A stretch of DNA of 64,000 nt from the NCBI GenBank assembly GCA_027118455.1, contig JAJAYZ010000091.1, positions 416 through 64,415 of the forward strand. The letters run 5' to 3'. The stretch comes from Actinomycetes bacterium. Its GTDB lineage: Bacteria > Actinomycetota > Actinomycetes > JAHEKZ01. How positions within the stretch are numbered: position 1 is the first letter of the stretch; the number at the start of each line of letters is the position of its first letter. Position numbers and translations under genes: made by a program. Below, one piece after another: positions 38,094 through 55,355 of the stretch. Under the pieces are notes generated by a model. That model did no database searches. It was not told the origin of the DNA and saw only the letters and a program-made list of their open reading frames with translations.

Positions 38094-38272
38094 GTCTCCT
38101 ACAGCGGACCTGGCACCAACCTTCGGCTTTCCTGGCCTTGCTCCTATTCGCTTGCGCCGGCGCACTAATAGCGAGTATTGCGAGTGGCAGTGAATTCGGC
38201 GTGTGGCTCGTGGTTGGCGCTGCGGCGGGCTACGCACTGAGCGGCTCTACTTGAAGTAAGAACTCGGCGGCA

Positions 38273-38821: not shown

Positions 38822-38847
38822 TCGCACGGTCGTGATTTACGGGGACC

Positions 38848-40092
38848 TTATCGCCAAACGAAGGGAATGCTCGGAGACGATAAGGGAGTCTGGAGGAGAA
38901 GCCCGCACTTACCATCGTCAGTCGTGCAGCCGAGGATGAAGCCCATGAATGGGTGTTCACTCGAAGAGCCCACCACCTTGTCCGCAGGGACTACGAACGA
39001 GTAGAAAGTCTTCGGGGGGACGCGTGCTTGTGAGTCAGGGATTCCTCGCCACCACGCACCGTAACGCACGTTCATCTCCTCCGAGAGGCCCAGCAGACCA
39101 TCGGGCAATTGAAGTTCTTGTACCTGCTCGCCCGACTCCAGGTCGTAGATTCGACCGTCGTCCGCCAAGGCCAACTTCGGTCCGGGGATCCAAATAGGAC
39201 TCAGACTGATCAACGCGTTATCTGCGCAGTGAGTTGCAATCAGATTTACTGCTCCCTCTGCCGTCAGTTCATAGACTTTGGAGCATTCTCCGTCCTGAAC
39301 GATGCCGCGGCCGTCGGGCTGAAGGTTATAAGTGCTGTCTAGTCGCTCCGGCGCGGAACCGGGATTCCAGAGCCAGGCGCTGCCTTGCTGGTCTTGGTAG
39401 ACATAACCCGCGGGAGTCCAGGCTTGCGTCTTGAACAGGTTCTCGGGTACCGAACCGATACGTTGACCAGACTCGTCCAAGAGCGACGCGCCCATGTTTA
39501 TGTACTGACCGTCAGGGGATGCTGCGAACGCGTCGGGATTGGAAGGATCTTGATTCGGAAACGGTCGAAAATCCCCGCCCATATCTCCCAGCCAGCCAGC
39601 AACCGGCCCGTTTCGCTCCAGTTGGATCATCCAACCGGGAGGAGTCCCGACGATAACCCGCGAAGCCTGAACTGAACCAGGGACGCCATTTGTCATTTCC
39701 TTCCATGCCCCATACCAAAGCCGGCCATCGACAACGTAGGAAGGACTGCTGTCCTCGGCGGAGTGGCCAGGGTAATCGGGGTGGGTCACAGTTTGGATAA
39801 CATCTTCGACCGTCGCCTGCTCGGGTGGTGCTTCGGATTCACCAGCAACTATTTGCGAGTCACCCACAGGCGGAGTTGTCAGGTGGTTGGCGACCAGCAC
39901 CACTGCGGCCGTTGCGACGGCCACGAGTGTGGCTGAGGCAACTGCCCGACCTCGCGTGTGACTCCGAGACCTGGCCCAAGCCTCCGGCGCCATGTCCATC
40001 CCTGAATGAGCGTTGCCCGCGACCTCAACCAGTAGCCGCCTGACATCAGATTCGTTCGCTGGCATCTTGATCCTCCCACTTCGTGGTGACAC
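38848..40092 (-). CDS. Anti-sigma factor: single-pass membrane protein with a large extracytoplasmic beta-propeller-like domain
   Basis: A short cytoplasmic N-terminus and one TM helix (AVASATLVAVATAAVVLVA) precede a periplasmic domain of about 330 aa with SPDG-type repeats. The start overlaps the 3' end of the ECF sigma gene. Confidence 0.6.
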   Translation of the reverse strand: MSPRSGRIKMPANESDVRRLLVEVAGNAHSGMDMAPEAWARSRSHTRGRAVASATLVAVATAAVVLVANHLTTPPVGDSQIVAGESEAPPEQATVEDVIQTVTHPDYPGHSAEDSSPSYVVDGRLWYGAWKEMTNGVPGSVQASRVIVGTPPGWMIQLERNGPVAGWLGDMGGDFRPFPNQDPSNPDAFAASPDGQYINMGASLLDESGQRIGSVPENLFKTQAWTPAGYVYQDQQGSAWLWNPGSAPERLDSTYNLQPDGRGIVQDGECSKVYELTAEGAVNLIATHCADNALISLSPIWIPGPKLALADDGRIYDLESGEQVQELQLPDGLLGLSEEMNVRYGAWWRGIPDSQARVPPKTFYSFVVPADKVVGSSSEHPFMGFILGCTTDDGKCGLLLQTPLSSPSIPFVWR

Positions 40093-40555
40093 TCCTGAGA
40101 CGTGTCAGCGCTGCTGCACTGTGGCTCTTCACGGTTCCTACTGTCACTCCCAGGACCTCGGCGGTTTGCTGTTCGGAAAGGTCTTCGAAATATCGAAGAA
40201 CCAACACCGAACGCTGCTTCTTTGTGAGGTGAGCAAGGGCCGCGATTAGACTCTCCCGCTGAACGATCCGGGCACTGTGATCCGGTTCCGCCAGGTCCCG
40301 GGACGCCGCAACTGCGGGAGTGCTGTTGCGCTTCAATCTGCGCCATGAAACGAAACTGTTGAAGAGCACCTTACGGGCGTAGGCTTCGGGATTCTCGTGC
40401 TCTAAGCGCGACCAACGCTCGGCAACCTTGATCAAAGTCTCCTGAACAAGGTCCTCGGCTTGTGGCTGGCTCCCCGACAGCAGGAAGGCTGATCGCACAA
40501 GCCTGGCCTGGTGCATTCGTGCCCAGGCTGTGAAAGTCGCCTCGCCCGTGTCCAA
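40046..40555 (-). CDS. ECF-type RNA polymerase sigma-70 family factor
   Basis: Region 2 (EDLVQETLIKVAERW) and region 4 HTH (VLVLRYFEDLSEQQTAEVLGVTVGTVKSHSAAALTRLR). Confidence 0.8.
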   Translation of the reverse strand: MDTGEATFTAWARMHQARLVRSAFLLSGSQPQAEDLVQETLIKVAERWSRLEHENPEAYARKVLFNSFVSWRRLKRNSTPAVAASRDLAEPDHSARIVQRESLIAALAHLTKKQRSVLVLRYFEDLSEQQTAEVLGVTVGTVKSHSAAALTRLRSVTTKWEDQDASERI

Positions 40556-41227
40556 AGTCTCTCCTCCGTCTTCTTTTATAACGCTTTGAGTGACGTGTTC
40601 GGATGGGTCTCACGCGCACCAATCATGCCCTTCTCTCCAAGTTGGACGCCATACGCCGGCAGAGCCCCGCTGACAGCTGGGCTCTGAGGTGATCTTCGGG
40701 TTCAGACTCGCTGCTGTCGATCGCGGCAATGGCGTGATTATCGCTGAGTTGGGAGGGCTTGGCCCAAGAGCCTTCAGTGAGCTAGCCGCGGGACTGAGGT
40801 TTACTAGTTCAAAGCCCGATGCGGTCAAGCTTGCGAAGCCTCATCTTGCTGGGGCTCGATCGAGCTGAGCGCGGGTCGCCACCAGTCGGGCGCGAAGAAC
40901 TGATTAGTCGCGATGCCTCTGACGACGACGTCGCTGTTTGACCACTTTAGCTTCGTGTAGTAGGCGTAGACTGGTGTCTTTACCGAGGCAGTACTTCTCC
41001 ATCAGTTGGGGTGAGGTCTTCCCCGCTTGGTAGTCGGCAACGATCTGCTTGGGACCTTCTGCCCGTAGCCTGTGCTCGATCTCTCAGTTAACTTCGGAGT
41101 GGGCGAGCAGATGATTCGCTTTCGGACAAACGCTACCGGTGCCGTGAAGCGGGTAAGGAGAGGCTCCGCTCGTCCCAGGCGATGGGAAAGTCTCGCGGGC
41201 AGGTAAATGTAGGTCGTCGGCAGTCAA

Positions 41228-41994
41228 CTAGCCGGCTAGGTAGGCACGGCGCGCGGCCTGCGCCTTCTTCCAGTCGTCTTCAAACTCTGCAACGGTCGGT
41301 TTGGTACTCATCTTTTCTGCTGCATGTGAATGCCCGGACCTGCGATCGCAGGCGCGAGCAAAGAGCGGCTCTATGACGGCGGTTGCGGCTTTGAGGTGGA
41401 CCGCGTCGATCTTTGCCAACTTGGTCATCATGATGTTGTGTCGGTAGCGCTGGGTAACGCCTTGGAGGAGTTCTTGCTCCACGAACGCTTCGCACCAGGC
41501 GCGCAGGGATCGTATGCCTCCTTGATGAGTGCGTCTTGCACGATTGCTTCAGCCTTAGGCATGATCTGGACCTTTGCGTTGATCCGCTTCGCGAGTTCTG
41601 CCGGTGTATCGAGTTGAGGCTCGACATCGGGCGCGAGGATTCCCTTCTCCTCTCCGCCGTCGCGCGCTTCGTATATCTTGACTCGGAGCTTCTTGTTCTG
41701 GCGAGTGGCGATGAGCGCTGACGCGAACATGATGTTGTGAGTTAGGACGACGACTTGATGTGATTCAGCCAGATGCTGGATTCGTGCGGCGACCTCATCA
41801 AGCCGTCGATAGTTCAGGCTTGTGACCGGGTCGTCGAATACAAGCAGGGCCTTATTGCCGCGCATGCGGCTCTCGGCTAGGAAGTCAGCGAGGGCCAGCA
41901 CCTTCTGCTCTCCCTCAGAGAGCGTGAACACGCCTGAAGTCATAGAGCTGCGCCAACACCCCAAGAGGCTCACACAAACTGACCGGGTAGGCAC
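41228..41994 (-). pseudogene. C-terminal fragment of an ABC/AAA-type ATPase (signature motif plus D-loop), frameshifted
   Basis: LSEGEQKVLALADFL...ALLVFDDPVTSL is an ABC signature followed by Walker B. No Walker A or N-terminal half lies upstream. The C-terminal continuation sits in another frame (41228..41482). Confidence 0.45.
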
Positions 41995-42379
41995 GTAGCT
42001 CGCTGTGCCGTCTTACTCAAATTCTGGTCCCAGGGGCGGCGGGGGGTGAGTTCCCAGGAGTGCCTGGCTAGGAACTCTGATCACCCGATCCGCCCCACCA
42101 AGTCTGGGCGTGTCGCCTAGTCAACGACGTGTAGCAGTTGCTGAAGCTGCGGGGCGGTAAGTCCGAGGACTCGACTAGGCGTCCGACGCCTCCTGCATCC
42201 CGGCACGTGTCTAGGTCTGCCAGCGCTGTCCCGTAGGGGAGGATCGCGGCCCGGAACGCGTCAAGTTCTCGGTTTTCGCGAAGGCGCAGATCTTGGAGCC
42301 TTTTCTGCACACCTCCTGACGGGCTGTCCCACATCGGGCACCCCGCAGGGCCTTCCTGATTGCGAGAGGTGGCAAAGTC

Positions 42380-42685
42380 ATGGCGCGGTTACTGGGTTCG
42401 GTCCTGGCCGCCGATCCAGGGGTCAACCCCAACAACAGCGGATTGCCCGGGCTCAGCGTGCTCAAGCAGATGGTCGGTGCGCTGTTGACTTGGGGGCTCG
42501 TGGCGTGTGTCGCCGCTTTGGTGGTGTCGGTGATCCTCTGGGCGCTTGGGCATCACGGCGGCAACTACTCGCAGACCACCAGCGGCAAGACAGGTGTACT
42601 CGTGGCGTCGGGCGGCGCCCTCCTCATTGGCGGGGCCAACGCAATCGTGGCCTTCTTCTCGGGCCTTGGCGCGGGGATTCACTGA
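42380..42685 (+). CDS. Small membrane protein, possible VirB2/TrbC-like conjugative pilin
   Basis: 101 aa with two hydrophobic helices and a Gly-rich C-terminus. It is the first gene of a T4SS-like cluster. Confidence 0.4.
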   Translation: MARLLGSVLAADPGVNPNNSGLPGLSVLKQMVGALLTWGLVACVAALVVSVILWALGHHGGNYSQTTSGKTGVLVASGGALLIGGANAIVAFFSGLGAGIH

Positions 42686-42686
42686 C

Positions 42687-43925
42687 ATGCCATTCCCGAC
42701 GGTCGACGTGTGCGTCGGTCCACTAGACCCGCTATGTCAGGCAGTCGACGGAGCTGCTGGCTCGGTGGGTGACGCGGCATCGGACGCTGTGCTCGGAGGG
42801 CTGGGCTCGGCGTTCGTATCCGCCGCCGATGAGGTGTCAGCGACGGCGCTCGCCGCCCTTGACGCGACCACCCGGATTGACCTGACTGCGTCATGGTTCC
42901 AGCAGAATGTCGCCGTCATCGCGGCAGTCACGCTCCCAGCGGTCGTCGGTCTCTTTGTACTTCAGGTGATCGCGTCGGTCCTGCGCCGAGAGCCGGGTGG
43001 ACTCGTTCGGGCGGTTGTGGGAGTAGGCAAGGCGATGCTTGGCTCAGCCATCGCCATCGCGGCGACCCAGACGGCCTTGCTTTCTGTCGACCAGATCTGC
43101 GAGTTCATCGCCGCGTCCGCGGGGACCACTGTGGTGGGTGCCGCATCACAGTTCCTGGATCTGACATGGCTTGCAGGGCCGGCAGCAGGTCCTGTCCTTC
43201 AGATCTTGTTGGGGCTGGCGATGATCGTCGGCTTCCTGCTGATGTGGGCCGTGCTCCTCTTCCGCAAGGCCGCCCTGATGTTGGTGGCGGTCTTTGCGCC
43301 CATTGCGTTCGCCGGATCGGTGTGGGACCACACCCGGATCTGGACGCGGCGTTGGATCGAAGTCGTCGTCGCGCTGGTGTTCTGCAAGGTGGTCATCGTT
43401 GTGGTCTTTGTCGTCGGCGCGAGTGCGTTCTCCGGTGTTGGTCCAACTGTTCCCGGAGGCGATATGACGGCAGTTGCAGCAAAGCCCGCAGCGTCACTGT
43501 CGGATCTGCTCGTCGGCCTTCTCCTTCTGACCATCGCTGTGTTTGCTCCCTGGGTGACATGGCGGTTCGTTCACTGGTCAGGAATGGAAGCGGCTGCAGT
43601 GATGCATGGGGCTGTGATGGCTGGCCCTGTTCCCAATGCCGTTCGTGCATCCGGTTCACAAGCGAGGTTCATGGCGCAATCTGCCGTCACCACGATGGTT
43701 ATGGAAGGCGCTGGCGCAGCTTCCGGTGGAGGCGGTGCTGCCGCTGCGTCTGGGGGTGCGTCTGCGCGCGCGGGGGGAGGGCCCGCGTCGGGCGCGCTTT
43801 CTGGCGTCAGCCCTGCGGCTGGTCCCGTCGCGGGAGGTTCGGGCAGTCGCTCAGCCGCCGGGGGACACAGCGCCCCGGTGGTCGACCAGCCAGCACGTCG
43901 TCCCAGCGACGAGGACCGGTCATGA
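42687..43925 (+). CDS. VirB6/TrbL-like polytopic conjugal-transfer membrane protein
   Basis: At least six TM helices and a Gly/Ala/Ser-rich C-terminal tail. The start follows the upstream stop (TGACATG). Confidence 0.5.
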   Translation: MPFPTVDVCVGPLDPLCQAVDGAAGSVGDAASDAVLGGLGSAFVSAADEVSATALAALDATTRIDLTASWFQQNVAVIAAVTLPAVVGLFVLQVIASVLRREPGGLVRAVVGVGKAMLGSAIAIAATQTALLSVDQICEFIAASAGTTVVGAASQFLDLTWLAGPAAGPVLQILLGLAMIVGFLLMWAVLLFRKAALMLVAVFAPIAFAGSVWDHTRIWTRRWIEVVVALVFCKVVIVVVFVVGASAFSGVGPTVPGGDMTAVAAKPAASLSDLLVGLLLLTIAVFAPWVTWRFVHWSGMEAAAVMHGAVMAGPVPNAVRASGSQARFMAQSAVTTMVMEGAGAASGGGGAAAASGGASARAGGGPASGALSGVSPAAGPVAGGSGSRSAAGGHSAPVVDQPARRPSDEDRS

Positions 43926-45355
43926 GCTCGGCCCCCAGCGCAACGGTTCGGTTCGGACGTCTCGAACGTCGGGGCGTGCTGCTGGGGCTCTCAGCAGGGC
44001 AGCTGACCGCACTTGCTGGTGGGCTGGTCGTCTTGGTCGCTGCGGAGTACACGGCGGGCGCGGTGGGCGTGCTGGCCAGTGCCCCGGTGTGGGTGACGTT
44101 GGCGGGTGTTGCCCTGATCGCAGTCGCCGGTCGACCGGTGGTGGCTTGGCTCCCGATCGTTGGAGACTGGACGCTACGCCGCGCACTCCGTCAGACAGTG
44201 CACGTCACCCGCCCCTTGCGTGAACTGTCACCGGATGCACTTGCGCTCCCGGGCATCCCGGGTCCGCTCGACGTGATCGTGTCATCCGCCAACGGCGCCG
44301 CGTACATCGTCGACCCTCGGTGGTCGACCGTGACGGCCATCGTGGAGGTGAGTGGGCGTAGCTTCGTCCTTGAGGACCCAGGGACGCAGGATCGCCACGT
44401 TGGCGGCTGGGGCAGGGTCCTTGCTTCGCTGTGTCAGCAACCCGAGGTCGTCCGTGTGCAGGTGCTGCACCGAACCTCGCAGGGTGGCGCGACAAAGGTC
44501 CGGCGGTGGTGGGCTTCCCACGCGCTTGCTGATGCACCATGGGCCTCCCGCGTGGTGGCCGAGCTAATAGCAGATGCCGAGCAGGTCGCCGACCGACAAG
44601 AGTGCCTCCTAGCTGTCGCGATACGCCTACCCCGCGCCGGTCGACGAATTAGCGGGGCGACGCTGACCGCGGTCGACCAGCACGTCGGTGCGATTGTCAA
44701 TTCCCTTGCGTCAGCAGGCTTGGATGTGCACGGCTGGGTGGCGCCCGCTCAGTTGCGGCATGTACTTCGGACGTCGTACGACCCGAACGGGGCAGCGGTC
44801 GCCGACGTCAGCAAAGCGGATGACCGGCAGCCCTCTCCGATGGTCGGGCCGATGGGGGTGTCGGAATCGTGGGATTCGGTGCGTACCGACACCGCGCACC
44901 ACGTCGTCTACTGGGTTCAGGAGTGGCCGCGTAGCGATGTGCATCCGGGCTTCCTTCAACCACTGTTGCTGACACCGGGAGCGCGCCGGTCGTTCACGCT
45001 CATCGCGGAGCCGTTGCCTCCGGCCAAGGCGTTCCGTGAGATCCGGCGGGCGAAGGTCGAGCACACCGCCGACGCTGCCCAGCGCGCGCGGATCGGTCGA
45101 CTGGAGGATGAATCCACTCGAGCCGAAGCTGCCGATTTGGTGCGCCGGGAGCAGGACTTGGTGGCGGGGCACGGTGATCTGCGTTTCGCAGGACTGGTTA
45201 CTGTCAGCGCTGGGACACGTGACGAGCTGGACGCGGCATGCCGGGCCACCGAGGCTGCGGCCGGCCAAGCGATGTGCGAGTTGCGTCGACTGGTCGGTCA
45301 GCAGGGTCAGGCACACGCCGCTGCGGCGCTGCCGCTGGCGCGAGGTCTCCTGTGA
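43922..45355 (+). CDS. SCO6880-family-like conjugative element membrane protein
   Basis: N-terminal TM pair then a domain of about 400 aa. The gene context is typical of actinobacterial ICE T4SS modules. The long ORF 42893..45355 is an antisense-like N-terminal extension, so the start was trimmed to the ATG overlapping the upstream stop. Confidence 0.45.
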   Translation: MSSAPSATVRFGRLERRGVLLGLSAGQLTALAGGLVVLVAAEYTAGAVGVLASAPVWVTLAGVALIAVAGRPVVAWLPIVGDWTLRRALRQTVHVTRPLRELSPDALALPGIPGPLDVIVSSANGAAYIVDPRWSTVTAIVEVSGRSFVLEDPGTQDRHVGGWGRVLASLCQQPEVVRVQVLHRTSQGGATKVRRWWASHALADAPWASRVVAELIADAEQVADRQECLLAVAIRLPRAGRRISGATLTAVDQHVGAIVNSLASAGLDVHGWVAPAQLRHVLRTSYDPNGAAVADVSKADDRQPSPMVGPMGVSESWDSVRTDTAHHVVYWVQEWPRSDVHPGFLQPLLLTPGARRSFTLIAEPLPPAKAFREIRRAKVEHTADAAQRARIGRLEDESTRAEAADLVRREQDLVAGHGDLRFAGLVTVSAGTRDELDAACRATEAAAGQAMCELRRLVGQQGQAHAAAALPLARGLL

Positions 45356-46719
45356 ACGGGCTGATGACGCGGCACCGAACTGTTCGCCCTGTGACCTTTC
45401 GGTCGCGGGCGCCGCAGTGGCGGACCTGGACACCGTTTCGACTCCCGGCGCATCGAGCGAGCTCGGCGACGCTGGCTGGGGCATATCCGTTCCTGGTTCC
45501 AGCTCCGTCCGACACGGGCGTCTATGTCGGTACCGATGCGCTCACCGGCGGTCCGTTCTGCTTCGATCCATGGTCCCTATACACCGCCGGAGTGCTCACC
45601 AATCCGAACGTTCTGCTCGCGGGGGTGATCGGACAGGGCAAGTCGGCCCTAGCGAAGTCACTGGCAGTGCGGTCGATCGCTGCGGGTCGACGCGTCTACG
45701 TGCCCGGCGACCCAAAGGGGGAGTGGGCCGCCGTTGCAGACGCTGTCGGAGGGACGGTGGTCTCGCTCGGGCACGGCATGACGACGCGACTCAATCCACT
45801 CGATCCGGGTCCGCCACCCCGCGACCACGAGTCTTCCGCGTGGGGGTCGCTGGTGCGCGGACGACGCCTACGGCTGCTTTCCGCTGTGGTCGAGCTGACC
45901 CTCGGGAGGGAGCTGCGTCCGGTCGAGCATGATGCCCTTGACGCGGCGCTCACCGTCGTTGAGCAAATGAGCGCGCCGACGATCCCCGACGTCGTCCGCT
46001 CGCTCACCGATCCCGATCAGGTTGCTGCGACCGCTGATGGCACGACTGTCGCTGAGCGTGCATTGGACGGACGAGACCTTGCCCATGCGCTTCGCCGTTT
46101 GGTGCGGGGAGACCTAGCTGGCATGTTCGATGGTCCCTCATCTGAACGGCTGGACGCTAGTGCGCCCATGGTTGTGCTCGACCTTTCCCGGGTCGGGTCG
46201 GACGACTCTGCGCTGGCGCTTGCCATGACGTGCGCGTCGTCCTGGCTCGAAGCAGCGCTCACCTCGGACACTGGTGGGCAGCGGTGGGTGGTCTACGACG
46301 AGGCCTGGCGCTTGCTGCGATCTGTGCCGCTCGTGCGACGAATGCAGGCGCAGTGGAAGTTGTCCCGCTCATATGGCATCGCGAACCTACTCGTCATCCA
46401 TCGGCTCTCCGACCTCGACGCGGTGGGCGCTGCTGGCAGCGAAGCCCGTGCCATCGCCGATGGTTTGCTGGCCGACTGCTCCACGCGCGTGGTGTACCGA
46501 CAGGAGACCGACCAACTCATCGGCACAGGTGACGCGCTGGGCTTGACCACGACCGAGCGCGAGCTACTCCCTGCACTGCCAAGGGGTACCGGGTTGTGGA
46601 AGATCTCAGGCCGCTCATACATCGTGCGCCATCAGCTTCATGTCGACGAGCTCGCCGTGTTCGACACGGATGCGGCCATGCGCGATCTGGGACGTTCGCT
46701 TCCCGTGGGTGAGCGATGA
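45352..46719 (+). CDS. VirB4/TraC-like conjugative ATPase (short actinobacterial form)
   Basis: Walker A VLLAGVIGQGKSALAKSL and Walker B-like VVYDEAWRLL. The GTG at 45352 overlaps the upstream stop. An alternative ATG lies at 45238. Confidence 0.6.
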   Translation: MNGLMTRHRTVRPVTFRSRAPQWRTWTPFRLPAHRASSATLAGAYPFLVPAPSDTGVYVGTDALTGGPFCFDPWSLYTAGVLTNPNVLLAGVIGQGKSALAKSLAVRSIAAGRRVYVPGDPKGEWAAVADAVGGTVVSLGHGMTTRLNPLDPGPPPRDHESSAWGSLVRGRRLRLLSAVVELTLGRELRPVEHDALDAALTVVEQMSAPTIPDVVRSLTDPDQVAATADGTTVAERALDGRDLAHALRRLVRGDLAGMFDGPSSERLDASAPMVVLDLSRVGSDDSALALAMTCASSWLEAALTSDTGGQRWVVYDEAWRLLRSVPLVRRMQAQWKLSRSYGIANLLVIHRLSDLDAVGAAGSEARAIADGLLADCSTRVVYRQETDQLIGTGDALGLTTTERELLPALPRGTGLWKISGRSYIVRHQLHVDELAVFDTDAAMRDLGRSLPVGER

Positions 46720-47840
46720 ACGCGGTGCATTTTGCTGAGCAGGCGACTCTCGGGTGCCTCCTGCTCGACCCCGCTGCCGCAAGGCCGGTGGCGACGGTGT
46801 TACGCGCGGAGGACTTTGCCCATCCCTGGCACCGCGCGGTCTTCACCACCATCCGGGAACGCCACGTTGCTGGCGCCCCACTGGACGCGAAGATGGTGGG
46901 TCCTGCCCTCGTCGAACGACTGGGGCAGCGTAAGGCCGATCTCCCACGTGTCCTCGATCTGCTGCGTGCGGCGCCGATTCACCCCCAAACAGAGCGCTAC
47001 GCAGCGATGGTTCTCGAGGCTTCGCTGCGCCGCCAGGTCGCCTGCCATGGCGTCCTTCTAGAGGCAGCTGCTCTGTCCGCGTCGTTGTCGATGAAGAGTG
47101 GCCCAGTCACACGGGTCGCCGGTCTCGTCGACGCTGCGCTTAGGGACGCCGAACGTCGCTGGCTCATCGCCAGGGGCAGTCACTCGGATGCCGATGCCGC
47201 CGCGCAAACGGACCCATCGACTCGGCTCTTCGATACCGCGTTGGGAGCCGATCGGCTCCTGAGGGCTCATCCGCCGATCGATTCGACCGAGGCAATGCAA
47301 AACGAAGCGCACCTGGTTGCGGCCCTGGTCACACATCCCGCTGACGTCGCGACCACCGCCGCGTGGCTGCGACCAGAGGCGCTCACCGATCCGGCCTGGC
47401 GACCGGTATACGCCGCACTTGTCCAGGTGGCGGAGTCAGGCGAGCCCATCGACGTCGTGACGGTCAACTGGGAGGTGCGTCGCGCCTCCGCGCGGATGGG
47501 TCAAGGGCCGGGTACCCGAGAGCTCCGTGAGGCAGTCGACTCGGCCGCCGCGAGCGATCCCGGATACCTGAGTCGCGCTGTCGCCTCTGACCAGTTGCGG
47601 TCCACGGCTGCGCACGCTGCGGATGCCCTGCGTTCGTGTGCGAGCAACCCCGGCATTGACTTGGTCGACGTTCTGCACACCGGTCATCTGTTGACTAAGG
47701 CGCTGTGTGAGAAGGCGAACGTCCTTCCGGAACGGTCGTCTGGCAGTCCCCCGCAGAGACACCTGGCGGCGGTGCACGACCGTACCCAAACGCGGGACAT
47801 TGAGTCGATGCGTGGGGTCCTCGGGCCGGTGGCCGGATGA
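46716..47840 (+). CDS. DnaB-helicase N-terminal-domain protein (no ATPase domain)
   Basis: AEQATLGCLLLDPAAARPVATVLRAEDFAHPWHRAVFTTI resembles the DnaB N-terminal domain. Confidence 0.5.
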   Translation: MNAVHFAEQATLGCLLLDPAAARPVATVLRAEDFAHPWHRAVFTTIRERHVAGAPLDAKMVGPALVERLGQRKADLPRVLDLLRAAPIHPQTERYAAMVLEASLRRQVACHGVLLEAAALSASLSMKSGPVTRVAGLVDAALRDAERRWLIARGSHSDADAAAQTDPSTRLFDTALGADRLLRAHPPIDSTEAMQNEAHLVAALVTHPADVATTAAWLRPEALTDPAWRPVYAALVQVAESGEPIDVVTVNWEVRRASARMGQGPGTRELREAVDSAAASDPGYLSRAVASDQLRSTAAHAADALRSCASNPGIDLVDVLHTGHLLTKALCEKANVLPERSSGSPPQRHLAAVHDRTQTRDIESMRGVLGPVAG

Positions 47841-49675
47841 CTCCCGCACGCCGGTCTCCAGTTCGACCATCTGGCTCCTACGCGACGGGTTCCGGCATGG
47901 ATTACGCGAACTGGGGCCTCTCCGCACTTCTAGCCTTGTTGGCGTTCGCTTGTGTTCAGTGGGCAGGGGCTGCGCTGGCCGGTGTGGTGACTGGTCGAGG
48001 AGTTCCACGCGGCGGGATGCTGCCCGCGTTGGTGGCGGTCACGGATTTGCAGGATCCCTCGACAGCTTGGCCTGAGCCGGCGCAAGTGCCCGCGTGGATT
48101 CCGTACTGGGGCTGCACCCTGCTGGTGTGGATCGCCGTGGGAGCATTCGTCCTCCTCGGCAAGCACCTGTGGTGCCGCTTTCTGGTTCCGAGTTCGTCCG
48201 CAGTGGACCGCGTTCGGTCACTACCTGGGTTGGCGACACCGAGCGAGGCCGAGACTGCCTCGGGGCGCAAAGCCCTGCAACGTCGCGCAGCTGTCGCACG
48301 ACCGTCGCTGGTCGGGAAAACCGCTCCCACTGACGTCGGCTATCGGCTCGGTCGGGTGCGCGGCAAGGATCTGTGGTGCTCGGTCGAGGACTCGGCGTTG
48401 CTAGTCGGACCACCGCGCATGGGCAAGGGCCTTCACATCGTCATCCCATGGGTGGTCGACGCTCCGGGGTCGGTGGTGGCGACGTCGACGCGACCGGACA
48501 CGCTCGCGGTCGCCTTCCACGCCCGTGCCACACACGGCGAAGTCGCGGTCTTCGACCCACAACGGCTTGCAGGTCTGCCGGGCGGTCTGCGCTGGTCGCC
48601 GGTGCGCGGCTGTGAATCCCCTCAGACCGCTCTCGTCCGGGCGCGAGGACTGGGGTCCGGCGCCGGATTCGGCAAGACGGTGTCGGACTCAGACTTCTGG
48701 GCCGGACAAACCGAGACGGCGTTGCGCTGCCTCCTGCACGCCGCAGCTTTGGACGGTCGGCGAGCGGTCGACTTGTACCGGTGGTCGCTGAACCCCGCAC
48801 TGGCTGAAGACGCGGTCACGATTCTCACTCGTCACGCAGACGCTGCAACCGGCTGGGCGGACGCCCTGGAGGCGGCCGTGCATGCCGATCCGCGGACGCG
48901 CGACAGTGTCTGGCTCGGTGTGCGTCAGTCGCTCGCCGCACTCGCTGACCCCGACGTGCTGGATGCCGTCGATCCTGGCCCGGGTGAAGCCTTCGACCCG
49001 GTGGGCTTCTTGAAGAACTCCGGCACCCTGTTCCTTCTGGCGTCGTCGGTTGCGTCGTCGTCTTGCGCGCCGCTGGTGGCGGCCTTCGTCGAGGACATCA
49101 CCGAGACTGCACGGACCCTGGCCGCCCGCGCCACCGGTGCGCGGCTCGACCCGCCGCTCCTTCTTGCACTGGATGAGATCGCCAACCTGACCCCGCTTCC
49201 GTCCCTTCCGTCGTTGATGGCCGAGGGCGGCGGGTCGGGCATCACCACTCTGGCTGTGTTGCAATCACTCGCCCAGGCACGACACCGGTGGGGCGAGCAC
49301 GCTGCCGACGCGATCTGGGATGCCGCCACAGTCAAGCTCGTCCTCGGCGGACTGGCGAAACTGCGCGACCTCGACGACGTGTCTCGCCTACTGGGCGAGA
49401 TCGACGAACCAACCCAGACCCTCTCTCGCGGTCGAATGGGGGAACGCTCCTCGTCCACGAGCCTGCGCCAGATGCCGGTTATGCCGCCCTCAGTTCTGCG
49501 AACCCTGCCGTTCGGAACCGGTGTGCTGCTCCTGCGACACGCCCGCCCCGTCGTCATCGACCTTCAGGCATGGCCCGACCGACCAGACGCCGACCGACTG
49601 ATCGCGGGACGCACCGCCATCGAGGCCGCAACTGCAGCGAGCCCGCTTCCGAACTCGTTGGCCGAAGTCCAATGA
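47837..49675 (+). CDS. Type IV coupling protein (VirD4/TraD/TraG-like)
   Basis: N-terminal TM helices, P-loop LLVGPPRMGKG and a C-terminal TraM-recognition-like region. Confidence 0.65.
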   Translation: MTPARRSPVRPSGSYATGSGMDYANWGLSALLALLAFACVQWAGAALAGVVTGRGVPRGGMLPALVAVTDLQDPSTAWPEPAQVPAWIPYWGCTLLVWIAVGAFVLLGKHLWCRFLVPSSSAVDRVRSLPGLATPSEAETASGRKALQRRAAVARPSLVGKTAPTDVGYRLGRVRGKDLWCSVEDSALLVGPPRMGKGLHIVIPWVVDAPGSVVATSTRPDTLAVAFHARATHGEVAVFDPQRLAGLPGGLRWSPVRGCESPQTALVRARGLGSGAGFGKTVSDSDFWAGQTETALRCLLHAAALDGRRAVDLYRWSLNPALAEDAVTILTRHADAATGWADALEAAVHADPRTRDSVWLGVRQSLAALADPDVLDAVDPGPGEAFDPVGFLKNSGTLFLLASSVASSSCAPLVAAFVEDITETARTLAARATGARLDPPLLLALDEIANLTPLPSLPSLMAEGGGSGITTLAVLQSLAQARHRWGEHAADAIWDAATVKLVLGGLAKLRDLDDVSRLLGEIDEPTQTLSRGRMGERSSSTSLRQMPVMPPSVLRTLPFGTGVLLLRHARPVVIDLQAWPDRPDADRLIAGRTAIEAATAASPLPNSLAEVQ

Positions 49676-50877
49676 GCAAACTCGTGGGGTTCACTGTTCT
49701 GATCGTCGGCTTGATGGCCGTACCTGCCATCGCACTACTCGCCCTCATCGGACTAACCGCCAACGCGATCGCTTGCACGCAGTTCACGGGCGGGTCGCTG
49801 CGACCTTCAGCGCCAGTACCTGCGCAGGCAAAGTTGTGGATTGCCTTGGCGCAGTCGGCATGTCCGGACCTCCCAGGAGCGTGGATCGCTGCGGTCATGG
49901 CGCAGGAGTCGGGGTTCCGACCGAACGCGTACGCCGACGATGTCAACGGCGGAACGTGGGGGCTGTTGCAAATCAACGAGGGCATTTGGCGCGCCACTTA
50001 CGGAGCTGGTTGGAACGCCGACCGCAACCACAACGGTGTCTGGGATGTGAAAGACCCCGAGATCCACGCTGTCGTCGCCGGAAAGTACCTGTGCGCACGC
50101 CTTGATGGCGTACGTCGCATCCGTACCGAGCATCCCGACTGGGTGTCCACTCAAGACTTGACTGAGCTCGACGCACTCGTGGTCGCGCACAACGCGGGGG
50201 AGTCCCAGCTGGAGACATACCCATCGATCCCCAACGTCACAGCCGACTTCATCCGAACCGTTCGTCATCATGTCGTGGCATGGTCTGGACCGACAGCAAG
50301 TGGGTCAAGCGCCGTCGCTGCCCCTGACCAGCCGACGGTCGATGCTGCCTGCCTTGCGAGCTTGGGCCCGGCAAGCGGGATCGTCGTACCACCCGGCACC
50401 CCGGCTGACGTCGCGACCGCGGTTCGCACGTCGCTCGGCCTTGTCGGGTCTCGCTCCGGCTGGGCGGGGATGTGCGACCGTCTGGCCTGCCGGGCGTACG
50501 GATTCGACAACAGCGGCTACGCATCGGCCTCCGTGCACTGGGCGGCCATGGTTGCGTCCGACCGAGCCCACGTTGATGACCGGTGCCCACCGGTCGGGTC
50601 ATTTGTGTTCTGGTCCACCAGCGGTCCATACGGTCACGTCGCACTTGTCGTTCAATCCGACAGTGGCTGCGATCCCGACCAGATCAAGCTCGTCAGCAAC
50701 GACGTGCTGGACAGCCGCACCGGTTACGACGGCGGTGTGTATCTCGTAACGCTCACGCAGATCGAGTCGGGCTTCATGTCACGCACCGGTTATCTCGGCT
50801 GGTCGGATCCCGTCTGCGCGGGCACCCCGCTGCCATCAGCCGCGTCGAGGGCGCGGCGGGTCGCCAGGGCCGGCTGA
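49672..50877 (+). CDS. Secreted peptidoglycan hydrolase: lytic transglycosylase (SLT) N-domain plus NlpC/P60-CHAP-like C-domain
   Basis: Signal/TM, then the SLT motif AVMAQESGFRPNAYADD...GLLQINE. The C-terminal Cys-His region reads GMCDRLACRAYG...YGHVALVV. Confidence 0.65.
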   Translation: MSKLVGFTVLIVGLMAVPAIALLALIGLTANAIACTQFTGGSLRPSAPVPAQAKLWIALAQSACPDLPGAWIAAVMAQESGFRPNAYADDVNGGTWGLLQINEGIWRATYGAGWNADRNHNGVWDVKDPEIHAVVAGKYLCARLDGVRRIRTEHPDWVSTQDLTELDALVVAHNAGESQLETYPSIPNVTADFIRTVRHHVVAWSGPTASGSSAVAAPDQPTVDAACLASLGPASGIVVPPGTPADVATAVRTSLGLVGSRSGWAGMCDRLACRAYGFDNSGYASASVHWAAMVASDRAHVDDRCPPVGSFVFWSTSGPYGHVALVVQSDSGCDPDQIKLVSNDVLDSRTGYDGGVYLVTLTQIESGFMSRTGYLGWSDPVCAGTPLPSAASRARRVARAG

Positions 50878-50880
50878 TCC

Positions 50881-51861
50881 GTGGTGGGGGCTGCCTCGGT
50901 CGATCGAGTCGATCGACTCACGCAGTTGCATGAGCAACTCACCACTGCTGTGGATGAGCTCGCCAACAGTGACGCCTGGCGCCGCATGCTGGAGGTCGCC
51001 GCGCGGATGCCGACCTACAGCCCGTCTAACGTCTTGCTCATCGCCGTGCAGCGTCCGGAGGCCACGCGAGTTGCCGGGTTCGGTACCTGGAAGTCGCTCG
51101 GGCGCCACGTCTGCAAAGGCGAGAAAGGCATCGCGATTCTGGCGCCGTGCCTATACCGGGGCCGTGACAACGGGGAAGCCGATCGGGCGGTGTCGCGTGA
51201 GGAGCAGGCGAACGCACACGAGGAGGCGAAGCGTGAGCTGCGAGGGTTCCGGGTGGTGCACGTCTTCGATGTGAACCAGACCGAGGGCGATCCGTTGCCT
51301 GACGTTGCACCGGACCTGCTTATCGGAGCAGCCCCGGACAGGTTGTGGGAGCAACTCGTCCGTCTCGTCGAAGCGGATGGCTTCGTGGTGGAGCGCGGTG
51401 CGTGTGTGTGGGCCAACGGGTACACACGCTTCGACGACTGTGTCGTCCGGGTGCGCGACGACGTGGATCTAGCCCAGGCAGTGAAGACACTGGCGCACGA
51501 ACTCGGTCACATCCGAGCCGACCACGGGACACGTTTCGCCGACACGTACCACCGGTCCGTGGACTGCCGTGGTGTGGCCGAGATTGAGGCCGAATCCATC
51601 GCATACCTCGTGACTGCTGCGGCTGGGCTCGACGCGGGTGGTTACTCCGTGCCGTACGTCGCCGGCTGGTCCGGCGGAGATCCGGATCTGCTTCGCGCCA
51701 CCGCGACCAAGGTGCTAGCTACGGCGAGCAAGATTGACGAGGAGCTCGCCAGCACCGCGCGACCTGGGATCCCAGATGGGTCCACTGGTGTCCGCCGGCA
51801 CCCCATCCCGTTCCGTCAAGTTCCTGGGCGGAGCCCTGTGGGCCGGGCCGCCGGAGGCTGA
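50881..51861 (+). CDS. ArdC-like antirestriction protein (ssDNA-binding N-domain plus HExxH metalloprotease C-domain)
   Basis: YSPSNVLLIAVQRPEATRVAGFGTWKSLGRHVCKGEKGIAI matches the ArdC N-domain. The C-terminal motif is LAHELGHI. Confidence 0.65.
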   Translation: MVGAASVDRVDRLTQLHEQLTTAVDELANSDAWRRMLEVAARMPTYSPSNVLLIAVQRPEATRVAGFGTWKSLGRHVCKGEKGIAILAPCLYRGRDNGEADRAVSREEQANAHEEAKRELRGFRVVHVFDVNQTEGDPLPDVAPDLLIGAAPDRLWEQLVRLVEADGFVVERGACVWANGYTRFDDCVVRVRDDVDLAQAVKTLAHELGHIRADHGTRFADTYHRSVDCRGVAEIEAESIAYLVTAAAGLDAGGYSVPYVAGWSGGDPDLLRATATKVLATASKIDEELASTARPGIPDGSTGVRRHPIPFRQVPGRSPVGRAAGG

Positions 51862-52066
51862 GGGCCGTGCTCCCTCGTCTGCAGATGACCGGAATCGGCT
51901 CCGGTCTAGCGAATCAAGGGGACGCCACCTGGCACGGTCCCGTCATTAGTCTTCGACGTGCGTCTATCCGCCCATTAAGACGCACGTGGGCAGCGCTATT
52001 GAGTCGATCGAGGCTTTCAAGACCGTCGTTCAAACCCACGGATGATGCAAGCTCTAGGCTCCGATC

Positions 52067-52915
52067 GTGGCGATCACGAGTAGCGACTTCTTCACGAGCG
52101 GGTCGGGCGGTGACTGGTTGGAGCCTGTCGAGCCGGAGGAGCTCGACCGCGACAGGTTGACGAGGCTCCTCGAAGCAGCAGATCCTGTCGAGCCCGACAT
52201 CGACGTCACACTCGCCTTGATGGATCTCGTCCGAGACGACCTCACAGCCTCGGGAACCGGAGGGGGTGAGTCGCTAAGCGACCAGGACATGCGCCTCGCG
52301 ACACGGGTCCTGAGCTGCGTCGCGGACCGTGCGGGCTACGAATTCAAACTGCCTTTTCGCGATCACACGAGTTGGCGTGCTTGGTGGAACCGGAACGACG
52401 GATACGGCTCGTGGCAGGCGCGTCGCGATTTGCTTGGCGGTCTATTCGACGAGACCTACGCTCGCTTAATCGCAGCGCAAGAGCAAGCGCTTGACGCCAC
52501 GTTGGCCGAGGCGATCTCTCCCCACCGCACTCTCGGTTGGCCCGACGTGGACGCCGAGATAAACGAGCTCCGCCGTCAGTTCAGCAGGGCCACGACGCCT
52601 CAGGACTGCGCAGCCGTCGGCCTCGTCGCGGTTCGTGTGACCGAAGCCTTGAGCCGGAAGGTCTATGTGCACGCGGTCCACGGCGCCCCTGGAGAGGAAG
52701 AGCCGAAAATCTCCGACACTAAGAAGCGGCTCGGCTCATACGTCGTTGCCAAGTTGCCAGGCAAGGGGAACGAAGAGCTGCGACGCCTCGCCAAGACGAC
52801 GATCGAGGCTGCTCAGGCTATGAAGCATCGGGGAACGCCTACTCGAACCGAGGTCGGGGTAGCCGCCGACGCCGTGATTTTGCTCGCGAACATGCTGCGC
52901 CGCCTCGACGAGTAA
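52067..52915 (+). CDS. Hypothetical alpha-helical protein (282 aa), immediately upstream of a TIR-domain gene
   Basis: No recognised domain. Acidic N-terminus. Confidence 0.4.
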   Translation: MAITSSDFFTSGSGGDWLEPVEPEELDRDRLTRLLEAADPVEPDIDVTLALMDLVRDDLTASGTGGGESLSDQDMRLATRVLSCVADRAGYEFKLPFRDHTSWRAWWNRNDGYGSWQARRDLLGGLFDETYARLIAAQEQALDATLAEAISPHRTLGWPDVDAEINELRRQFSRATTPQDCAAVGLVAVRVTEALSRKVYVHAVHGAPGEEEPKISDTKKRLGSYVVAKLPGKGNEELRRLAKTTIEAAQAMKHRGTPTRTEVGVAADAVILLANMLRRLDE

Positions 52916-53007
52916 CGCGAGCTAAGGAGCCCCAGCGTGGGGAATCGGCGACCAACAACAGAGCTCGGTGGCGTCGTAGCGTCAGACGTCTCGTTTATCA
53001 TCGCCAT

Positions 53008-53718
53008 ATGGCGCAATGCACAGCACCGTATAGAGGTCATCGGACCGCGAGTGGGCTGGCAAATTGCCCTGCGTGCGCTGGTAGGCGGTACGGCCGCTCG
53101 TCTTACTCGTCGTACTCGCACAGCGGCGGGTCATCGAACGGCGGCAGGGGTAGATCGAGTTACGGCAGTTCGTCCGGCGGTAGTGGCGGAGGCTCGCGTC
53201 GGACTAGGACCGGCCGGTCGGTGTCGTACACCCCGACCGAATGGCGCACCGTCGAGCCCTTCACGGAGAAGGCCAGTGAGCAGGCTCAGGCGCACCCCGA
53301 ACGTCGCGACCTCTTTTTGTGCCACGCCTGGGACGACCGAGAAGGTAGCGCGAAAGAGTTGCACGGCCACCTAAAGGCGAATGGCGCGTCGGTGTGGTTC
53401 AGCGAAGAAGACCTTCCCCTTGGTTCGCTCATGATCCGCGAGATTGACAAGGGACTACGGAACTCCCGCGTAGGGATAGTGCTTGTCACGCCAGCGCTGC
53501 TCAAGAGCATCGAGGGCGAGGGCGTGGCGGAAAAGGAACTCGCCGTATTGCTCTCGACCCGTCGCGTCATCCCCGTACTGCACGGAGTCAGCTTCGACGA
53601 CCTGAACAACGTCAGCCCCATGCTGGCTTCGCACGCTGGCCTAGACGCGAAGGAGTCGTCGCTCGGCCTGATTGCGGCGAAGGTTGCCGCCGCTGCCGCC
53701 GCGCTCCCCGCCGCCTAG
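53008..53718 (+). CDS. TIR-domain protein with Gly/Ser/Arg-rich low-complexity N-terminus
   Basis: RDLFLCHAWDDREGSAKELHGHLKANGASVWFSEEDL...IVLVTPALLKSIEGEGVAEKELA matches the bacterial TIR fold (FxSHAxxD ... VWxDE ... LLKS..C..E). An alternative in-frame GTG start lies at about 53222. Confidence 0.6.
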   Translation: MAQCTAPYRGHRTASGLANCPACAGRRYGRSSYSSYSHSGGSSNGGRGRSSYGSSSGGSGGGSRRTRTGRSVSYTPTEWRTVEPFTEKASEQAQAHPERRDLFLCHAWDDREGSAKELHGHLKANGASVWFSEEDLPLGSLMIREIDKGLRNSRVGIVLVTPALLKSIEGEGVAEKELAVLLSTRRVIPVLHGVSFDDLNNVSPMLASHAGLDAKESSLGLIAAKVAAAAAALPAA

Positions 53719-53911
53719 GGAAAGACGCAACAGGTCGATTGCGATATGGACCTGCTTAAGGTGCGTCACTTCGCCACTAGCCGACCTGATGCGGAGATGG
53801 CTCCTAGGGTGTGAGGAAGGCCTCCCTGCGGGTGTGTCGCCCGGACTTCTGGCTCGATCCCTGCTGGCTGCTTTGGTCAGGGAGGATCGAGCCCCGCGGA
53901 CAGAGGTGAGA

Positions 53912-54382
53912 TTAGACGGAAGTGAACAGAGTCCGGTATCTCGAATACTCCGGGTCGTGGTCATCTGGGTGGGTGTGGGCAGTCCAACCCAGCGAGTGCC
54001 AGAACGGGTCTGAGGTCGCGTTCAGAGACATCGCAACGACTGGCTGACCGTAGTGCTGAGCGATCAACTCGACTACTCGCATTCCGTATCGTCGTCCGGA
54101 CTTTCGGAGGTCATCGCGAACCTCGATGAGATCGATTTCTGCCACACCAGCGTGGGGGCAAGTCCACGACGTGTACCCGCGGTAATGGCCGGAACGCGGC
54201 AGCACTTTGGCACGCGCCACCTCTTCACCGTCGTCCACGGCGCGGCAATAGGAAACAGGACTCTTTGCGCTGCCGCGGTGCCACCAAGAGAAGTCGAAGC
54301 GGGGGTCTTGACCAAAGTCGGGAGTCACGAGCTCTCGGCGAGCGGACAGACTCTCAGCGACTATCTCAAGTGCAAGCACCAC
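53912..54382 (-). CDS. GNAT-family N-acetyltransferase
   Basis: Motif A-like RKSGRRYGMRVVELIAQHYG in a 156-aa protein. Confidence 0.5.
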   Translation of the reverse strand: MVLALEIVAESLSARRELVTPDFGQDPRFDFSWWHRGSAKSPVSYCRAVDDGEEVARAKVLPRSGHYRGYTSWTCPHAGVAEIDLIEVRDDLRKSGRRYGMRVVELIAQHYGQPVVAMSLNATSDPFWHSLGWTAHTHPDDHDPEYSRYRTLFTSV

Positions 54383-54461
54383 AGGAGAATGGTCCCATGG
54401 AGCGAACGCCTCTTTGCTAGCGCGTCATCCCGCCGCGACTCGGTCAGACACGTGATTTGGG

Positions 54462-55154
54462 TCAGCCCCCGTGAATAGACTCAAAGTGTTGAGCTGTCGA
54501 TGGTTGCCCCCGAAAGCGATCTCTCGCGTCGATTAGATCTGGCAATTCCTGGTTCGCCATCCGGTTCCACTGGTAGAACGACGGGTGTGGAACGTGGAGT
54601 GGGCTGGGCGTCAGATCGGGGATGGCCGCAGCAACCATGAGCTGCGCGAAGGTGCCTGCGGCCACTACTCGGCCGTCGGAACGAGTAGCGACACCCGAGA
54701 GCCAATTGCGGAGCCCGTCAACGAGAACCTCTGAAATCGCCCGTGTCACAGCTCCTCGCATGGACGAAATTGAGCGCGCCCTCGACCGGCGAACCTTTTC
54801 GATCAGAGTCCACTCGTCTTCTCCGAGGTCGGGGGCCTCGACGTCGACGAAGGCGGCTTCCTGCATGGGAACGTTGCTGACGTTCAATATGGCAATACGA
54901 CCGTCCCCAGCAGCGTGACTCTGCTGGACGAAGCGCCCGAGACTCCGGTCCTTTGGTTGAGCTGGCTGTAGGAAACGAAGGGCACTCCTGCCGGCGGTCC
55001 CAACGACGGGCAGTCCCTTCCTCAGTTCGTCGACATGGGGTGACTCGAAGACGAAAAGGAGTTCCACGGCGCGGTTGGGTGGCACGAGGTCGGGGACATG
55101 CCACCGCGCATAGATCCCGCTGCCGTCCTCGCTCAGATAATTGATGGCAGTCAT
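54462..55154 (-). CDS. Uracil-DNA glycosylase-superfamily protein
   Basis: LLFVFESPHVDELRKGLPVVGTAGRSALRFL follows the UDG family-4/5 motif-A pattern (hydrophobic-FVGEAPG..E...G.PFVG.AG..L). Confidence 0.5.
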   Translation of the reverse strand: MTAINYLSEDGSGIYARWHVPDLVPPNRAVELLFVFESPHVDELRKGLPVVGTAGRSALRFLQPAQPKDRSLGRFVQQSHAAGDGRIAILNVSNVPMQEAAFVDVEAPDLGEDEWTLIEKVRRSRARSISSMRGAVTRAISEVLVDGLRNWLSGVATRSDGRVVAAGTFAQLMVAAAIPDLTPSPLHVPHPSFYQWNRMANQELPDLIDARDRFRGQPSTAQHFESIHGG

Positions 55155-55355
55155 GTCAGATCCGTTTGTAGGGGCACGTTGCGGATCCGATTGTTGCGCG
55201 GCGGCCGCTATCGGGCGAGTCGAGCTCTCTGCGTCTTTCCCGCCGCCTGCCGTCGTGGGTTGAGCGTGGGCCTAGCGTCGGTGTGTTGGGGTGCCTCGCT
55301 GTGTGGGTGGCGAGCACGGCGCGGCCTCACAGTAGATCGTCGCGTGAGGTGCTCC

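Follow-up and report, generated by a model that had tools for sequence, protein, structure and literature searches.

A type IV secretion operon and linked MobF relaxase of a probable integrated conjugative element in an uncultured actinobacterium

Actinobacterial integrative and conjugative elements (ICEs) with a type IV secretion system (T4SS) were catalogued in 2011-2012 by the presence of Int, TrwC, VirD4 and VirB4, and restriction systems, glycosyltransferases and type II secretion-type genes were listed among their cargo (PMC3218068, PMC3429521). Here, we analyzed a 64-kb stretch of high-GC actinobacterial DNA (contig JAJAYZ010000091.1 of an Actinomycetes bacterium; the whole stretch is referred to as the window), in which eight genes at 42380-51861 very probably form an operon for the mating pore and the coupling protein of a larger, integrated actinobacterial conjugative element of the MOBF/T4SS class. 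Position numbers are those of the window, and numbers above 64000 are window-equivalent positions. At species level, the nearest genome match was to a Candidatus Nanopelagicales metagenome-assembled genome. With its relaxase, coupling protein and VirB4-like ATPase, the locus is a further example of this known but little-studied element class, to which it adds a representative from uncultured, freshwater-type Actinomycetia. The interest that remains beyond class membership is modest. It lies in two putative accessory features, the linkage to a locus for a Tad pilus and a protein composed of DnaB N-terminal domains only (DnaB-N protein), in the sel genes of one cargo slot, and in two mapped cargo hotspots which collect defense systems (Gabija, a ThsB-like TIR protein and, in relatives, restriction-modification).

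The T4SS ICEs described by Ghinet et al. (2011) and Bordeleau et al. (2012), such as the 71-kb Fcci3350 of Frankia sp. CcI3, likewise carry TrwC/MOBF, VirD4 and VirB4-like genes on one chromosomal island. Their cargo is also similar (restriction/defense, glycosyltransferases and Tad-type "type II secretion" genes), and the size here is at least 55 kb. In contrast to the 17 published T4SS ICEs, neither a functional integrase nor attachment (att) sites can be assigned to the present locus, and the likeness described here is one of gene content. The same gene order (DUF6112, VirB6-like, SCO6880, ATPase and VirD4) is found on plasmids of Iamia sp. SCSIO 61187 (NZ_CP050950) and Streptomyces angustmyceticus (p1, NZ_CP104318). 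The complete Iamia plasmid shares the T4SS core and an annotated MobF relaxase on the opposite strand, whereas the Streptomyces plasmid shares a DnaB-N protein adjoining VirD4. However, protein identity to these plasmid clusters is 27-45%, and they contain extra small genes which are absent here; the present element differs further in being chromosomal, in having its DnaB-N gene between VirB4 and VirD4, and in having ArdC at the operon end. In PLSDB, 126 actinobacterial plasmids contain homologs of SCO6880.

The SLP2 transfer genes and SCO6871-6884 are related clusters. The trio of SCO6880, SCO6881 and VirB4 is also present among the SLP2 transfer genes and in the exapted cmd cluster (PMC2782261). 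In Streptomyces coelicolor, cmdABCDEF (SCO4126-4131) encodes homologous VirB4-like, SCO6880-like and SCO6881-like membrane proteins in one operon. Its cmdB-D genes have effects on sporulation and on segregation of the chromosome, and they provide no support for plasmid transfer (PMC2782261). As described, this cluster comprises five membrane proteins and one ATPase, but no VirD4, ArdC, hydrolase or relaxase (PMC2782261).

Transfer operon and its relaxase

An earlier note made from the sequence alone had interpreted this region as a conjugative T4SS module of an integrated element, with eight co-directional genes joined in part by 4-bp GTGA/ATGA overlaps. This interpretation is supported by our analysis. 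Using Pfam and NCBIfam, we found all eight plus-strand genes (g1-g8) where the note had placed them, each with an uninterrupted open reading frame (ORF), and five of their junctions are indeed 4-bp overlaps (ATGA in four cases, GTGA in one). A promoter and terminator scan of the operon yielded nothing exceeding the shuffled expectation.

The operon opens with g1 (42380-42685), which encodes a small DUF6112 membrane protein (Pfam, 58.7 bits, E = 5e-16) that the earlier note had called VirB2-like. This gene was detected in 11 of the 13 related loci compared, and the remaining two loci start within the operon. Upstream of it, 27 nt at 42291-42317 are conserved with the closest long relative (L017). 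The product of g2 (42687-43925) is a VirB6/TrbL-like polytopic membrane protein that passes the gathering score of Pfam TrbL (29.1 versus 25.9 bits). It matches SCO6881_fam of NCBIfam with an E-value of 1.5e-31 and lies below the curated cutoff of that family (NF047967; 109.7 versus 325 bits), so that, judged by profile scores, it is a relative of the SCO6881 family and not a member by the NCBI threshold. The next gene, g3 (43922-45355), belongs to the SCO6880 family (NF042935, 350.3 bits with a cutoff of 60, profile positions 4-476 of 477). When genome contigs were searched with this protein, a single 4.7-kb contig of a metagenome-assembled genome was recovered.

A VirB4-type ATPase is encoded by g4 (45352-46719). 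It matches the C-terminal halves of several NCBIfam VirB4/TraC models (E-values of 1e-7 to 2e-17), all far under the curated equivalog cutoffs (62 bits versus 590 for the best), and has a subthreshold match to Pfam AAA_10 (E = 0.006); its translation displays Walker A (GQGKS) and Walker B (VVYDEAW) motifs. Considering that g3 weakly matches positions 191-362 and g4 positions 392-661 of one and the same VirB4 model, the two proteins probably represent a split VirB4, with g3 as the N-terminal half and g4 as the C-terminal motor half.

Two tandem DnaB N-terminal domains without an ATPase domain make up the product of g5 (46716-47840; Pfam DnaB, 89 bits in two stretches). Its AlphaFold model (predicted local distance difference test score of 84.6) shows two DnaB N-terminal modules arranged in tandem, both entirely helical, and then a disordered tail; it resembles only DnaB N-terminal domains in the PDB. 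We considered g5 as a cryptic relaxase and rejected it, as the tandem contains no HUH or other catalytic domain. Homologs fall into 57 clusters, and in every related operon examined the gene sits between those for VirB4 and VirD4. The GPVAG motif at the end of the disordered tail is conserved in most of 31 aligned homologs and might act as a recognition signal, for instance to the coupling protein encoded by the neighboring gene.

That coupling protein, of the VirD4 type, is encoded by g6 (47837-49675; Pfam TraG-D_C 94, T4SS-DNA_transf 76.6 and TrwB_AAD_bind 46 bits). Thus, both a VirD4-like coupling protein (g6) and a VirB4-like ATPase (g4), which are used to define T4SS ICEs (Ghinet et al. 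2011; Bordeleau et al. 2012), are present in the operon. The product of g7 (49672-50877) is a VirB1-like cell-wall hydrolase with an N-terminal membrane anchor. Of the SLT/NlpC domains previously proposed for it, SLT was recovered (28.3 bits), whereas the second domain matched CHAP (22.7 bits). The operon closes with g8 (50881-51861), whose ArdC-like product combines a single-stranded-DNA-binding N-terminal domain (Pfam ArdcN, 43.9 bits) with an HExxH metalloprotease motif (HELGH).

The third hallmark of T4SS ICEs, a relaxase with a TrwC domain (MOBF), lies outside the window. None of approximately 50 window ORFs submitted, including nearly all long ones, matched a relaxase family in Pfam, and tblastn searches of the 64-kb window with three MobF/TrwC proteins, including the MobF of this genome and the TrwC of a relative, returned nothing significant. 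ORFs without assigned function at 36-40 kb and 52-55 kb were considered as relaxases and rejected; they match nothing in Pfam, NCBIfam or PADLOC and are not conserved in relatives. In this respect, the earlier claim that the window, including 40.6-61 kb, contains no relaxase is correct.

Sequence beyond the window was found by a metagenome-contig look-up with the glycosyltransferase encoded at 61358-63529, which retrieved contigs assembled from a number of samples within one metagenome series. Of these, four (L101-L104, from four samples) are 100% identical to the window from 56230-60229, depending on the contig, through 64000 and run up to 6.9 kb past its end; the available sequence stops at approximately 71.5 kb. 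They contain an intact MobF/TrwC relaxase-helicase gene at 65000-68797 on the minus strand, with a product of 1233-1265 amino acids (aa) comprising TrwC, AAA_30 and UvrD_C_2 domains. It begins 1.0 kb past the window end and 13 kb past the ArdC gene. In its own direction of reading it is followed by a DUF4913-like gene (64623-65003, minus strand, 126 aa), and at higher positions lie plus-strand genes of 143 aa (69014-69445) and 357/404 aa (69612-70826). A protein encoded past the relaxase shares 100% identity with one from an Actinomycetia bacterium metagenome-assembled genome at NCBI, whose 85-kb contig could hold the 64-kb window together with the 6.9-kb extension.

The relaxase scores 236 bits against the MobF equivalog of NCBIfam (cutoff of 100; model positions 1-297 of 299), and RecD2/TraA helicase models cover its residues 560-985. 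Its relaxase domain aligns with the structures of pCU1 TraI, R388 TrwC and F TraI, with conservation of the motif H-x-D...DP-x-V-H-T-H, and FDHWDTRTADPNVHTHVV lines up with the histidine triad of pCU1 TraI and R388 TrwC. Candidate catalytic tyrosines were picked by eye only (AGYQYLL / AYYTDAG). An HUH triad, an N-terminal tyrosine region (with tyrosines assigned in this way) and fusion to a superfamily 1B (SF1B) helicase, which characterize MOBF relaxases, are therefore all found. R388 TrwC and the F and pCU1 TraI proteins (1OMH, 3L57, 8A1B) share the N-terminal HUH domain, the histidine triad and the SF1B (RecD2-like) helicase that follows. In comparison with these structures, the present protein has low identity, a long extra C-terminal region and an N-terminal tyrosine region of the actinobacterial TraA/MobF type.

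Because this intact MobF gene lies 1.0 kb past the window on identical contigs, the element is not relaxase-less, and the missing relaxase is an artefact of the window edge. The test proposed in the earlier note spanned 40.6-61 kb and therefore could not see the gene. Absence of a gene from a fixed window does not mean absence from the element; in this case the gene lies 1 kb outside, behind 13 kb of defense and glycosyltransferase cargo that comes after the operon.

Relatives and extent of the element

Related loci were reached through homologs of g5, on contigs that share the eight-gene operon. A gene caller based on GC content at third codon positions missed several real genes and served only to seed tblastn comparisons. 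In four relatives (L012, L039, L027 and L030), the strand opposite to the operon carries TrwC/MobF at a distance of 0.9-3 kb downstream, and a small DUF4913-like gene comes after it. The closest long relative, L017 (77-84% nucleotide identity), has the TrwC and DUF4913-like pair 5 kb downstream, at the contig end, and in L013 the DUF4913-like gene alone of the pair is found, at the locus end. Hence, an arrangement of relaxase and DUF4913-like gene opposite to the operon strand is seen in six related elements, including the one with the small gene only, and the relaxase beyond the window has the same position and orientation. The gap between operon and relaxase is filled differently in each relative (PIN/HTH, Thoeris, PLD, BREX-like ATPases or signaling proteins).

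In comparison with L017 (77% identical), the ratio of nonsynonymous to synonymous substitution rates (dN/dS) ranges from 0.07 to 0.23 across g1-g8, while the C-terminus of the relaxase gives 0.26 and the DUF4913-like gene 0.19, with dS values of 0.6-1.4. These ratios of 0.07-0.26 indicate that the transfer functions have been under long-term purifying selection. Decay is confined to cargo, namely a recombinase pseudogene and a truncated PDC-S06-like ATPase gene.

These data bear directly on the proposal of the earlier note that the relaxase had been lost and that the locus is a decaying ICE, mobilized in trans or with a T4SS at most serving other elements. Such a history would agree with the lack of a detectable relaxase in the 64-kb window, with the pseudogene state of the recombinase at 55.3-56.3 kb, and with the truncated defense fragment at 41428-41994, which does show some decay of cargo. 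However, an intact MobF gene is present 1.0 kb past the window on the same DNA, at a position conserved in relatives, and all eight T4SS genes are full length, with the low dN/dS given above. We consider this scenario extremely improbable; as far as the relaxase is concerned the contigs refute it, and the view of a decaying element mobilizable in trans is not supported.

The operon is embedded in a much longer conserved arrangement. At the left end of the syntenic block is an intact HTH_17 excisionase-like gene (16541-16834, minus strand; Pfam HTH_17, 37.1 bits with a cutoff of 27), and L111 has an HTH_17 gene in the corresponding place, with 56% identity. At the nucleotide level, synteny with L110 begins at 16960, and to the left of HTH_17 the window and L110 are unrelated. 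Next come three conserved plus-strand genes without Pfam or NCBIfam match (307, 247 and approximately 304 aa; 17114-19698), which occur in the same order in L110 and L111. They are followed by a Tad (type IVc) pilus locus (19734-26140, plus strand), in which CpaB/SAF, TadZ-like, TadA (T2SSE), TadB and TadC (T2SSF), a small pilin and TadE-like proteins were recognized using Pfam. This locus has 84% nucleotide identity to L110/L017, and its gene order is the same in L111. The locus is closed by a gene whose 1049-aa product combines two LysM domains with a BTAD domain at its C-terminus (26137-29286, plus strand; Pfam).

LysM/BTAD homologs are also found upstream of DUF6112 in relatives, either adjacent (L017, with a gap of approximately 470 nt), 1.9 kb away with two small genes between (L015), or approximately 3 kb away (L039), as well as in L111/L019. 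The distance from the LysM gene to the operon is 13 kb in the window, compared with approximately 470 nt in L017 and approximately 6 kb of restriction-modification genes in L019. Thus, the order of HTH_17, three genes without assigned function, Tad, LysM, a variable segment and the T4SS operon is shared by three lineages (the window, L110 + L017, and L111 + L019, each pair being on a single contig). The conserved block extends from approximately 16.5 kb to at least 70.8 kb, with variable slots at 29.3-42.3 and 51.9-64.6 kb.

Under the preferred interpretation, the backbone would consist of HTH_17 (approximately 16.5 kb), Tad, LysM/BTAD, 13 kb of cargo, the T4SS operon, 12.7 kb of cargo, and the divergent MobF and DUF4913-like genes (64.6-68.8 kb). 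By homology to R388 TrwC and other T4SS, MobF would nick the origin of transfer (oriT) and remain on the 5' end. VirD4 would then pass the nucleoprotein to a minimal monoderm channel, whose parts would be the VirB6-like and the small DUF6112 proteins together with the two pieces of a split VirB4, SCO6880 and an ATPase subunit. The SLT/CHAP hydrolase may open the peptidoglycan, ArdC may shield the incoming single strand, and, purely by inference, the tandem DnaB-N protein would probably make contact with the apparatus for replication or priming (primase or helicase).

It is possible, though on the unlikely side, that the mobile unit is the whole block of at least 55 kb from HTH_17 to MobF, which would define a family with its own Tad pilus, a LysM/BTAD backbone, a dedicated DnaB-N protein and, here, sel cargo. 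If this is true, Tad and LysM/BTAD presumably make or stabilize mating contacts for a pilus-less monoderm T4SS, and a complete selenocysteine-decoding set would be horizontally transferable. The IncI1 plasmid R64 (thin pilus) and Pseudomonas PAPI-1 combine a conjugative T4SS with a separate pilus of the type IV family, namely type IVb in Gram-negative hosts. The likeness holds if Tad belongs to the element, and differs in that the pilus here is of the Tad (IVc) type and the host is a monoderm.

Recurrence of the operon beside a Tad locus also bears on a different idea, that it encodes an exapted, non-conjugative T4SS-like membrane complex similar to cmdABCDEF, possibly acting with the Tad pilus. 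The SCO6880/SCO6881/VirB4-like trio does have a chromosomal paralog in cmdB-D (PMC2782261). On the other hand, the operon encodes VirD4, ArdC and a VirB1-like hydrolase, which are not among the six genes described for the cmd cluster, a MobF relaxase is linked to it in this genome and six relatives, and the flanking variable defense cargo is typical of mobile elements. Exaptation of this kind is very unlikely, and a MOBF/T4SS conjugative element remains the best explanation of the operon.

Recombinases, ends and a candidate oriT

Several observations weigh against this explanation. No VirB8-like gene is recognizable in the operon. The extension with the relaxase is known from metagenome assemblies, which agree across four samples, and is not part of the window record; the 13-kb gap between relaxase and operon exceeds that of every relative examined. 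Homologs of the 307-aa gene heading the Tad block have a much wider distribution than the T4SS operon, so that the Tad locus may lie beside the mobile unit and not belong to it. Inverted-repeat scans near the relaxase gene and its upstream region gave nothing convincing as oriT. Finally, no intact integrase, no att repeats and no terminal tRNA were found between 16.5 and 71.5 kb, which bears on competence for excision.

The last point raises the possibility that the conjugation genes and relaxase are functional but the integrase has been lost and the element is fixed in the chromosome, in which case it might mobilize chromosomal flanks from oriT in an Hfr-like manner, or its machinery might be retained for some other benefit. 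Defective ICEs of this sort have been described as common in Streptomyces (Choufa et al. 2022, PMC9513070). In the conserved block, the only recombinase is dead. This XerC/D-like tyrosine recombinase pseudogene (55356-56260, plus strand) has at least three frame changes and in-frame stops, in keeping with the earlier description of it as frameshifted; its stitched translation matches Phage_int_SAM_1 and Phage_integrase (24.9 bits for the latter). It is dead in L017 as well, where merely a fragment of approximately 270-330 nt is retained. This and the lack of att repeats are what an excision-defective element should show. By contrast, the HTH_17 excisionase-like gene at the left end is intact, and the right end of the element was not reached, as the sequence stops at approximately 71.5 kb. 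Beside the tmRNA gene, positions 3227-4423 encode an intact tyrosine integrase, and the DNA separating it from the backbone is variable. Moreover, the DNA flanking the block differs between the window and L110, which speaks for recent movement, and strong purifying selection on the transfer genes is as expected of an actively transferring element. Loss of excision seems unlikely to us, though not negligible beside the preferred reading.

The recombinase pseudogene is also a point at which independent metagenome assemblies of this genome are interrupted: L002 stops at approximately 55.6 kb, and 56.23 kb is where L101 and L103 begin. This suggests a repeated or polymorphic sequence at approximately 55646-56230.

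The integrase at 3227-4423, which the earlier note did not mention, adjoins the tmRNA gene (from 2806) and lies 12 kb to the left of the conserved backbone. Approximately 12 kb of DNA with a lower GC content follows the tmRNA and integrase genes. Beside the integrase, this island encodes a PRTase-CE / PADLOC PRTase_III-A-like protein (5426-6124), which may belong to a retron-type or other defense system. The last 24 nt of the tmRNA T-arm/acceptor are 24/25 identical to the 3' end of tRNA-Sec (30581-30605), 27 kb away, which could be either chance T-arm similarity or an att-like repeat. Apart from this match, no repeats of the tmRNA 3' end or flank were found in the available 71.5 kb. The flank beyond the relaxase contains no meaningful repeats, and no tRNA genes were detected in the related loci.

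The sole lead for oriT is a conserved 13-mer, GGACTCGTCTGGC, at 68828-68840, approximately 130 nt upstream of the relaxase start codon. It recurs approximately 90 nt upstream in L027 and L030, in DNA which is otherwise divergent (positions 2081-2093 of L101, 15107-15119 of L027 and 15790-15802 of L030), and it occurs nowhere in the 64-kb window. An 8-mer, CTGCACAC, is also conserved approximately 50 nt downstream of it. Judging from this pattern of conservation, the 13-mer is a candidate for the nic region of oriT or for an operator.

Cargo segments

The first cargo segment (13 kb, 29287-42290) contains selD, tRNA-Sec, selA, selB, a MauE-like gene, an insertion sequence (IS; rve), genes without assigned function, an extracytoplasmic function (ECF) sigma gene next to an unannotated gene of 414 aa, and a PDC-S06-like fragment, as identified using Pfam, Rfam and ARAGORN. 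No direct repeats bounding this block were found. Its selenocysteine-decoding set (29465-33653) is complete, with selD on the minus strand, tRNA-Sec at 30515-30609, selA and selB. The selenocysteine trait may be cargo of the element, because a relative with 77-84% identity holds only approximately 470 nt at this place. The IS element encodes an rve-type transposase (34843-36123, minus strand), and metagenome contigs also break there. Upstream of the operon, a minus-strand truncated pseudogene (41428-41994) matches only positions ~620-760 of the approximately 850-aa PDC-S06 candidate defense ATPases of PADLOC.

Between the operon and the recombinase pseudogene, the first part of the second cargo segment (51862-55300) comprises a 282-aa protein without assigned function, a ThsB-like TIR protein and two minus-strand genes also lacking an assigned function, with no homologs at this position in relatives. 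The ThsB-like protein (53008-53718; PADLOC ThsB, 281.6 bits) has no recognizable ThsA partner nearby, and its neighbors at 52067-52915, 53912-54382 and 54462-55154 had no match in any library searched.

A Gabija system follows on the minus strand (56365-60299), with GajB at 56365-58278 (609.3 bits) and GajA at 58275-60299 (742.6 bits) in PADLOC; the two genes overlap by 4 bp. The adjacent pair of a GajA ATPase with a TOPRIM domain and a GajB UvrD helicase, which defines Gabija, is thus present. It is located between the T4SS operon and the relaxase, a slot occupied in relatives by Thoeris, PIN/HTH, PLD or BREX-like genes. Farther on, the minus-strand GT25/GH16 glycosyltransferase gene used for the contig look-up (61358-63529, 723 aa) has its called ATG start at 63529, with a Shine-Dalgarno-like GAGGAG upstream. 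The last gene of the window, a minus-strand Gly_transf_sug-like gene (255 aa), is cut at 64000 by the window end and is completed on L101-L104.

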